DNA of 64,000 nucleotides from Candidatus Borrarchaeum weybense (GTDB taxonomy: Archaea; Asgardarchaeota; Sifarchaeia; Borrarchaeales; Borrarchaeaceae), in the NCBI GenBank assembly GCA_019057385.1, contig JAHQJS010000003.1, positions 64,001 through 128,000 on the forward strand, read 5' to 3'. This document shows positions 48,904 through 49,911 of this stretch, in pieces. The translations under genes and the position numbers were made by a program. Under the pieces are notes generated by a model. It searched no databases. It had not been told where the DNA came from and worked only from the letters and a program-made list of their open reading frames with translations. Position 1 is the first letter of the stretch, and each line of letters opens with the position of its first letter.

Positions 48904-49911
48904 TCATAGTTCAACGTCTTTGTAATTATCACCCAGAAGTACAAAATTTGCAAGAAGAGCATTAAGTTGAATTTCCTCATTGGCACCTTCGCTAAGCCTG
49001 AACTCTGCTTCTCCTAACAAATTCATAAGTTTAACTTTCAAGTCATCATTTTTAAAGTTCATTATTTCAGAATTCATTTGCTTAAGTATATCTATACCTG
49101 ATAAACCGTATTTGATGAGTAGTTTATGAAGTTGTTCTCGGGCATCCATAAAATTATTTTTAAGTGCGAATCTTATCATTTCTTTAATTTCTTCAGGATG
49201 GACACGGCCTGTTACTTGATAAACAACATCTGCTTTGATTTCATCATCAAACGCTGCTGCCGCTTGTAGGATGTTTATACTATTTCGCATATCTCCTCTG
49301 GAACTTTCCAAAATAGCATTAATGCCTTCTTCAGTAAGATCAACACTCTCTTTTTTAGCTATATTATTTAATTGCATTTTAACATCCTCTTGAGATAATG
49401 GAGGAAATCGAAATATAGAACATCGTGATTGTATTGGTTCGATAATCTTACTTGAGTAATTACCGATTAGTACGAATCTACAAGTGCGTGTGTATTTCTC
49501 CATTGTCCTTCTAAGTGCTTGTTGCGCATCAGAAGTCATGTTATCTGCCTCATCTAGCACTAGGATTTTAAATGGTACGTCTCCAAGTCCTTTTGTTCTA
49601 GCAAAGTTTTTTACTGTTGTTCGAATGACGTCAATACCTCTGGTATCACTTGCATTCAATTCCAACAAATTGCCTTCAAAATATTCTCCAAATAAATCAC
49701 GAGCCAAGCATAATGCCGCTGTTGTTTTACCTTTTGGGAGGTTTTATTAAAATAAAGACCTTGTCCCCGGAGGACCGACAAATAAACAATGCGGCATTGA
49801 TTTCGTCTTAGCAAATGAGGTTAACCTTTGTACTATGCTTTCTTGGTTTATTATTTCTTTTAGACTTTTTGGGCGATATTTTTCTACCCACATCGCATAT
49901 TCTTCATACAT
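48904..49911 (-). CDS. rfcS: Replication factor C small subunit, interrupted by a 30-nt intron (49733-49762)
   Basis: Exon 1 [14 protein letters not shown]...LFVGPPG(T); exon 2 [13 protein letters not shown]...LELNASD, LDEAD, IQSRC. Confidence 0.92.
49733..49762 (-). other. Bulge-helix-bulge-type mRNA intron in rfcS
   Basis: 30-nt in-frame hairpin insertion containing TAA; removal restores GPPGTGKT. Confidence 0.8.

Follow-up and report, generated by a model that had tools for sequence, protein, structure and literature searches.

A probable bulge-helix-bulge intron within the Walker A codons of rfcS in Candidatus Borrarchaeum

The best described bulge-helix-bulge (BHB) intron in an archaeal mRNA is that of the cbf5 pre-mRNA of Crenarchaeota, found in Aeropyrum, Sulfolobales and Desulfurococcales (Watanabe 2002; Yoshinari 2006; Yokobori 2009, PMC2738675). 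In the literature searched, BHB splicing of a coding sequence is documented for cbf5 of Crenarchaeota only, and a 2026 review of non-canonical splicing makes no mention of archaeal mRNAs. Splicing of the cbf5 mRNA has been tied to a heteromeric form of the endonuclease EndA (Yoshinari 2006, as cited in PMC5829648 and PMC2724299). Relaxed motifs are cut by the (alpha-beta)2 and epsilon2 types of EndA only, and Asgard archaea possess the (alpha-beta)2 type with the Crenarchaea-specific loop (PMC5829648), which is required for EndA activity (PMC2724299). The Borrarchaeaceae were described in October 2026 as rich in tRNA introns, in a study that does not treat mRNAs (bioRxiv 10.64898/2026.10.13.758758). 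In eukaryotes, HAC1 and XBP1 mRNAs are spliced in an Ire1-dependent manner without the participation of the spliceosome (reviewed in PMC13149111).

Here we describe a short insert in rfcS, the gene of the RFC small subunit, located in a 64,000-nt stretch of contig JAHQJS010000003.1 (the window, to which all rfcS coordinates refer). A sequence-only reading of this DNA had assigned it to a probable Asgard archaeon, which is borne out by its origin in the genus Candidatus Borrarchaeum, and had reported a 30-nt in-frame insert containing TAA. The rfcS gene is encoded on the minus strand (ATG at 49911, stop codon 48904-48906), and its Walker A motif is split by the insert into GPPGT and GKTT (Table 1). 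Around the junctions the minus strand reads ...GGT CCT CCG GGG AC/A AGGTCTTTATTTTAATAAAACCT CCCA AA/A GGT AAA ACA..., where slashes mark the predicted cuts. The insert is indeed in frame and carries two TAA codons (translation RSLF-stop-stop-NLPK); without excision, the rfcS reading frame stops after 54 codons, i.e., five codons into the insert. Exact deletion of the 30 nt in silico gives a single open frame of 325 AA that encodes an RFC small subunit with GPPGTGKTT. An identical product is obtained when the deletion window is shifted by 1 nt, leaving the cut sites ambiguous by 1 nt, and other offsets damage the motif to PGKGK or PGTSK. Exon 2 alone, in which the Rep_fac_C and AAA domains were found, matches the NCBIfam RFC small subunit profile NF001679 with 396.9 bits (curated cut-off, 303) and covers profile positions 51-319 of 322. 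As the match begins at position 51, the break lies exactly where the approximately 50 residues of exon 1 belong.

Table 1. Positions of the rfcS parts, of the predicted BHB elements and of the further inserts. Plain numbers are window positions; G000 denotes the genome studied here.
Feature	Position	Strand	Details
rfcS exon 1	49763..49911	-	49 codons and AC of the Thr codon; ends ...CLFVGPPG-T(AC)
BHB-type intron (predicted), 30 nt	49733..49762	-	A-AGGUCUUUAUUUUAAUAAAACCU-CCCA-AA; two in-frame TAA
rfcS exon 2	48904..49732	-	last base of the Thr codon, then GKTTAAL... to stop
5' exon strand of motif	49765..49770	-	outer CC 49770-49769, central GGGG 49768-49765
5' bulge ACA	49762..49764	-	predicted cut after AC, between 49763 and 49762
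Inner intron hairpin	49739..49761	-	AGGU/ACCU, bulged C, UUUAU/AUAAA, loop UUUA
3' motif strand	49730..49738	-	CCCA 49738-49735, bulge AAA 49734-49732, GG 49731-49730
TBP insert 1, 30 nt	L035:1680-1709 = G000:C6:542850-542879	+	
TBP insert 2, 37 nt	L035:1892-1928 = G000:C6:543062-543098	+	
TBP insert 3, 31 nt	L035:2020-2050 = G000:C6:543190-543220	+	
secY insert, ~30-33 nt	L038:2664-2696 = G000:C5:281844-281876	-	in-frame stop, RELSLR-stop-LAE
RNase PH-type exosome subunit insert, 31 nt	G000:C3:140668-140698	+	frame-shifting, splits gene 140430-141204

All of the structural elements that the sequence-only reading had described, namely the outer CC/GG pairs, the central GGGG/CCCA helix, the bulges and the hairpin, are present at the locus. 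Two 3-nt bulges are found on opposite strands with a 4-bp helix between them at the exon-intron boundaries of rfcS, and the 3' cut is predicted between 49733 and 49732, inside the bulge AAA. The outer helix consists of CC/GG only and is invariant across species; because it is just 2 bp long, the rfcS motif counts as relaxed. The inner helix has 4+5 bp in this genome and 6-7 bp in two of the four related species considered below (G003 and G001). RNAfold gave a z-score of -0.8 to -0.9 for the sequence of this genome, i.e., no better than shuffled sequences. The fold that it favored is displaced by 3 nt from the canonical two-bulge form, which in the nearest-neighbor model is less stable by 5-8 kcal/mol. 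Cuts placed in the RNAfold-preferred register would break the rfcS frame.

We also scanned the whole genome for the hBHBh' geometry (L of 15-100) at loci where excision must join two otherwise broken open frames, with its mirror image, not expected to be a substrate of the enzyme, serving as a control. The scan returned 951 real vs. 845 mirror-image loci with the better thresholds and 203 vs. 189 at a score of at least 13, and rfcS itself was low-scoring. As the real and mirror-image counts are about equal, structure alone proves nothing and such a scan cannot find introns by itself. Given the weak motif and fold in this genome, the case for an intron rests on comparison with relatives.

We determined that an insert is present at the identical site in all five Borrarchaeum species, that is, in this genome and the four others of the genome collection (G001 to G004), with lengths of 30, 30, 30, 28, and 31 nt. 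The concern that the insert might be absent from raw reads is refuted by its presence in independent raw-data assemblies: DNA contigs from three other independent studies span the rfcS insert without indels, and an assembly artifact as its source is excluded. Searches of metagenomes and of the genome collection revealed one further carrier only, contig L119. In G003 and G001, which have the 28- and 31-nt inserts, the reading frame differs between the parts of the gene before and after the insert, so that neither read-through nor in-frame reading explains them. When the cuts were placed in silico 2 nt into each of the 3-nt bulges, GPPGTGKTT and a product of 324-326 AA were obtained in 5/5 species, and this canonical register is the only one that restores the frame in all five. 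The cut rule originally put forward as restoring P-G-T-G-K thus holds here as well as in the four other species. In G004 and G002 the third base of the 3' bulge is U, and the joined codon ACU still encodes Thr. Among loci from other lineages, neighboring RFC-type genes included, 198/198 Walker A sites were uninterrupted (two further loci, in which no Walker A was found, stand outside the 198), and in this comparison the interrupted Walker A is the presumed derived state.

Alignment of the five species showed that 96.8% of the sequence-by-pair cells are paired in the canonical register, compared to just 26-63% when the 3' partners were slid by 1-3 columns. A compensatory change from G-C to A-U was seen at inner-stem columns 22/41, and one central pair is altered from G-C to G-U among the species. 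The single G-A mismatch that had been claimed for the central helix is real: column 13 is G here and in G004, and U, forming a U-A pair, in G002, G003, and G001. G002 and G003 have a perfect central helix, UGGG/CCCA, and that of G001 is UGGG/CCUA with one G-U pair. In this genome the mismatch goes back to a synonymous replacement of CCU by CCG in a Pro codon. The allele with U (plus strand, 49768 C>A) was found in three other studies and gives a perfect or near-perfect helix. In an independent metagenome variant (X4) from one marine-sediment run, 49752 and 49747 are both changed and the top hairpin pair is kept, a second compensatory change. RNAfold z-scores relative to shuffles were -3.6 for G003 and -2.3 for G001. 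In a shuffle test of the covariation, 45 of 500 shuffles matched the observed score; the covariation comes from five sequences and probably reflects one or two evolutionary events. As only five species were sampled, the support from compensatory changes is modest.

A search of the genome for other split conserved genes had been proposed in the sequence-only reading, and a motif-free census, in which ORFs from 2.8 of the 3.58 Mb of the outgroup G040 were compared with this genome by tblastn, did find inserts in three of them. The census recovered rfcS and secY as in-frame inserts with stops, and frame-shifting inserts in the genes of TBP and of an RNase PH-type exosome subunit. The three TBP inserts all lie in the only TBP gene of the genome and form clean gaps in alignment with the straight-reading TBP genes of G004 and G001; to judge from a shorter match in repeat 1, G002 and G003 probably lack at least insert 1 as well. 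The relatives free of TBP inserts are 96-98% identical in protein sequence, and the simplest reading is that the putative TBP introns were gained in this species. With each bulge cut after 2 nt, the ends of all three inserts agree with a central helix of 4 bp (CUGC/GCAG, GUCU/AGGC, and CUGU/GCAG). TBP introns 1 and 3 share common ends, ATTTAG…TAAAGCAGAA, and occupy equivalent …GKLVCT/G.KS… sites of the two TBP repeats, and a Thr-Gly context (AC/NGG) is common to both of them and to the rfcS intron. The pair looks like a recent gain, possibly via copying between the repeats.

The secY insert directly precedes the conserved FWMRTILASSRG; its BHB is relaxed, and the strict geometry did not fit. 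To judge from open-frame lengths, G000, G002, and G001 probably carry this insert and G004 and G003 probably lack it. The insert in the RNase PH-type gene lies 12.7 kb beyond the end of the window; its central helix is CAGU/GCUG, an outer helix is lacking, and joining would give the product ...MASFSVDERKSPAPS.... For 265 in-frame, stop-free insertions, only TBP intron 1 scored above the mirror control. In total, four of the conserved genes compared (rfcS, TBP, secY, and the exosome subunit gene) contain at least six such candidate introns, and mini-introns in this genome are few rather than rampant. The earlier statement that mRNA examples are rare has to be qualified for this genome, which has at least five more such inserts in three other conserved genes. 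Other genomic copies of the introns were looked for and none were found in the genome, so no repeat family or mobile element was found. The sequence AAGGT occurs at both ends of the rfcS insert and was considered as a target-site duplication; this was rejected, as the copies are 29 nt apart and removal of 29 nt would break the motif. Split hits in HdrA/MvhD-like genes (q1970, q3664, and q550) were likewise rejected as introns, since they look like ordinary gene boundaries or fusions. These genes are fused in G040 and are found here as adjacent separate frames (G000:C6:683811-683883, C6:185893-186000, C4:630967-631192, and C6:952232-952272). One HdrA/MvhD-like junction has an in-frame stop (LEG-stop-KMV...), which might encode selenocysteine.

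The genome encodes two proteins of the EndA family. EndA-1 (L033:1156-1779) shows its greatest similarity to the alpha subunits, i.e., the catalytic ones, of the Aeropyrum and Sulfolobus heterotetramers. It retains Tyr, His, and Lys of the active site and aligns without gaps across the Crenarchaea-specific loop, including the Lys44 position. EndA-2 (L034:1423-2091) has both domains, with Glu in place of the catalytic His. RtcB is also encoded (profile score of 581.8 bits). A second RtcB copy, L200/L201 (G000:C1:13917-15008, plus strand), is one open frame without profile positions 89-131. With regard to tRNA genes, aragorn reported only 32 in the whole genome G000, 16 of them with introns, some of which are oddly placed or implausibly long (up to 2174 nt); this is consistent with a lineage in which the tRNA genes are interrupted so heavily that standard tools miss them.

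Taken together, comparison with the relatives supports the original interpretation of the 30 nt as a BHB intron removed from the rfcS mRNA, and we give this reading a probability of roughly 85%. As the insert is kept at one site in all five species, the rfcS mRNA must almost certainly be cut and rejoined before protein synthesis. In the mechanism that we propose, exon CC-GGGG of the rfcS transcript would pair with the 3' end CCCA of the intron and the GG at the start of exon 2, and this fold would set the two 3-nt bulges on opposite strands of the 4-bp helix, beside the intron hairpin. EndA-1, as the catalytic subunit, and EndA-2 would cut 2 nt into each bulge, and RtcB would ligate the exons to GGG-ACA-GGU-AAA. 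The intact Walker A (GPPGTGKTT) would be translatable only after joining. We infer the cutting and joining by EndA-1, EndA-2, and RtcB, as well as the exact cut positions, from the genome sequences.

Could rfcS instead be a pseudogene, inactivated by the 30-nt insertion and now decaying? The stop that the unspliced frame meets within the insert would be expected of such a gene, and no spliced rfcS message is found among the RNA data: run searches gave no RNA runs matching the rfcS locus, and the sole contig from a library labeled as metatranscriptomic (X20; 204 nt, 49497-49700) ends short of the insert. Yet, joined rfcS shows dN/dS of 0.055-0.094 in all ten species pairs, all five species being insert carriers, with dS up to about 1.05, and the putatively spliced coding sequence is under strong purifying selection. 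No further stops or frameshifts are present in rfcS of the five species, and although the insert differs in length between species, its exact excision always restores the frame. In exon 1, 24/49 codons are variable among the five species, 15 of those purely synonymous, and the synonymous changes reach the junction, with Val, Gly, and Pro codons next to the insert among those affected. Another intact rfcS elsewhere, which the sequence-only reading had named as the mark of a pseudogene, was not found in the genome, which is scored 100% complete. Decay of the gene is thus extremely improbable. We find it just as hard to credit that the product is a split protein, in which an N-terminal peptide of 54 AA would, without splicing, act together with a C-terminal chain that has a start of its own. 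A 267-AA open frame does begin at a TTG just downstream of the insert (49707), but its product would be without GKT and the whole P-loop, and the N-terminal peptide would end in GPPGTRSLF. Moreover, the exact codons are kept on both sides of the insert, which joining explains and two chains do not. The remaining clamp-loader-like genes of the genome are those of the RFC large subunit and of a DnaX-like AAA+ protein of 324 AA (L003:1219-2190, minus strand; G000:C1). The latter falls below every NCBIfam cut-off (best, dnaX_nterm with 155 bits vs. a cut-off of 250) and could be a divergent paralog, a mobile-element gene or contamination; the contamination score of the genome is 7%.

Translational recoding, either by a frame shift or by ribosomes bypassing the insert in the manner of phage T4 gene 60, is very unlikely. 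The stop within a hairpin soon after the interruption is superficially like the gene 60 gap; however, no matched take-off and landing codons yield GPPGTGKTT, as ACA is without an ACA landing site and a hop from GGG to GGU would remove two residues of the motif. The gap also varies (28-31 nt) while the BHB flanks are fixed, and we know of no translational bypass of the gene 60 type in archaea. Inteins occur in RFC P-loop codons, and an intein needs >130 in-frame codons; this explanation was rejected for an insert of 28-31 nt that has two stop codons and, in two species, a length not divisible by 3. It is unlikely, too, that the insert is removed from the RNA by another nuclease and ligase, or by cuts elsewhere that lead to an identical product. 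The minimum-energy fold differs from the canonical register, the outer helix of 2 bp and the central mismatch weaken the motif in this genome, and the 1-nt ambiguity of the cut sites would allow for such a route. Against it stand the exact EndA-substrate geometry, which is perfect in G002 and G003, and the presence of genes for a broad-specificity EndA and RtcB. In addition, the three TBP inserts, the ends of which are defined independently by the empty sites of the sister species, conform to the same cut rule. The geometry and these TBP boundaries single out EndA as the prime candidate.

With rfcS read as carrying a BHB intron, the further inserts raise the idea of an active gain of tRNA-type mini-introns by essential protein genes of Borrarchaeum. 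On this view the rfcS intron would be old (genus-wide), and three would have been gained in TBP since the species split. We put this forward tentatively, as a possibility rather than the expected outcome. As a possible route of gain, EndA and RtcB might act in reverse on transcripts, with DNA copy-back or recombination between repeats as the next step. If active gain were true, a working route of insertion into mRNA-coding DNA would exist in the closest prokaryotic relatives of eukaryotes. As some inserts vary between species, the arrival of introns and their preference for the most conserved motifs become testable in relatives of the eukaryote ancestor. If rfcS is spliced, DNA replication in Borrarchaeum would depend on the tRNA-splicing machinery, since there would be no clamp loader without EndA and RtcB. 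Standard gene callers will mark such essential genes as broken or truncated, which skews completeness and metabolic inferences for Asgard genomes.

The closest counterpart of the rfcS intron is that of cbf5, which is likewise short, lies within coding sequence and has a BHB at its exon-intron boundaries. The hosts also resemble each other, as both have a two-subunit EndA with the Crenarchaea-type loop, and in both cases the presence of introns among relatives is patchy. The genes differ: cbf5 encodes a pseudouridine synthase in Crenarchaeota, whereas rfcS encodes a clamp-loader ATPase in an Asgard archaeon, with the site inside the Walker A codons. Unlike what is described for cbf5, the Borrarchaeum genome has further such genes (TBP with three inserts, secY, and the exosome subunit). 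Splicing of cbf5 has been shown experimentally, whereas that of rfcS we infer.

With the BHB introns of tRNA and rRNA the rfcS intron shares the predicted motif of two 3-nt bulges and a 4-bp helix, and predicted cutting 2 nt into each bulge by EndA with joining by RtcB. In contrast to those, the rfcS fold has no tRNA or rRNA body, and its exon strand is made of Pro-Gly codons; as the substrate is an mRNA, splicing must precede translation of the interrupted region. Ire1 splicing resembles the proposal for rfcS in that a protein nuclease opens the mRNA at two structured positions and a ligase of the tRNA type (RtcB in animals) reseals it, with no spliceosome and with a change in reading frame or product. 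Ire1, however, is an unrelated kinase-RNase that acts on two stem-loops in a regulatory, stress-induced manner, and nothing suggests regulation of rfcS. RFC inteins, like the rfcS insert, interrupt the best conserved motif of this gene family and are removed after transcription. They are translated and excised from the protein, whereas the rfcS insert has 28-31 nt with stops and shifts the frame in two species. The proposed mechanism is therefore the known archaeal BHB pathway; what is new is the gene, the lineage, and the unusually critical position.
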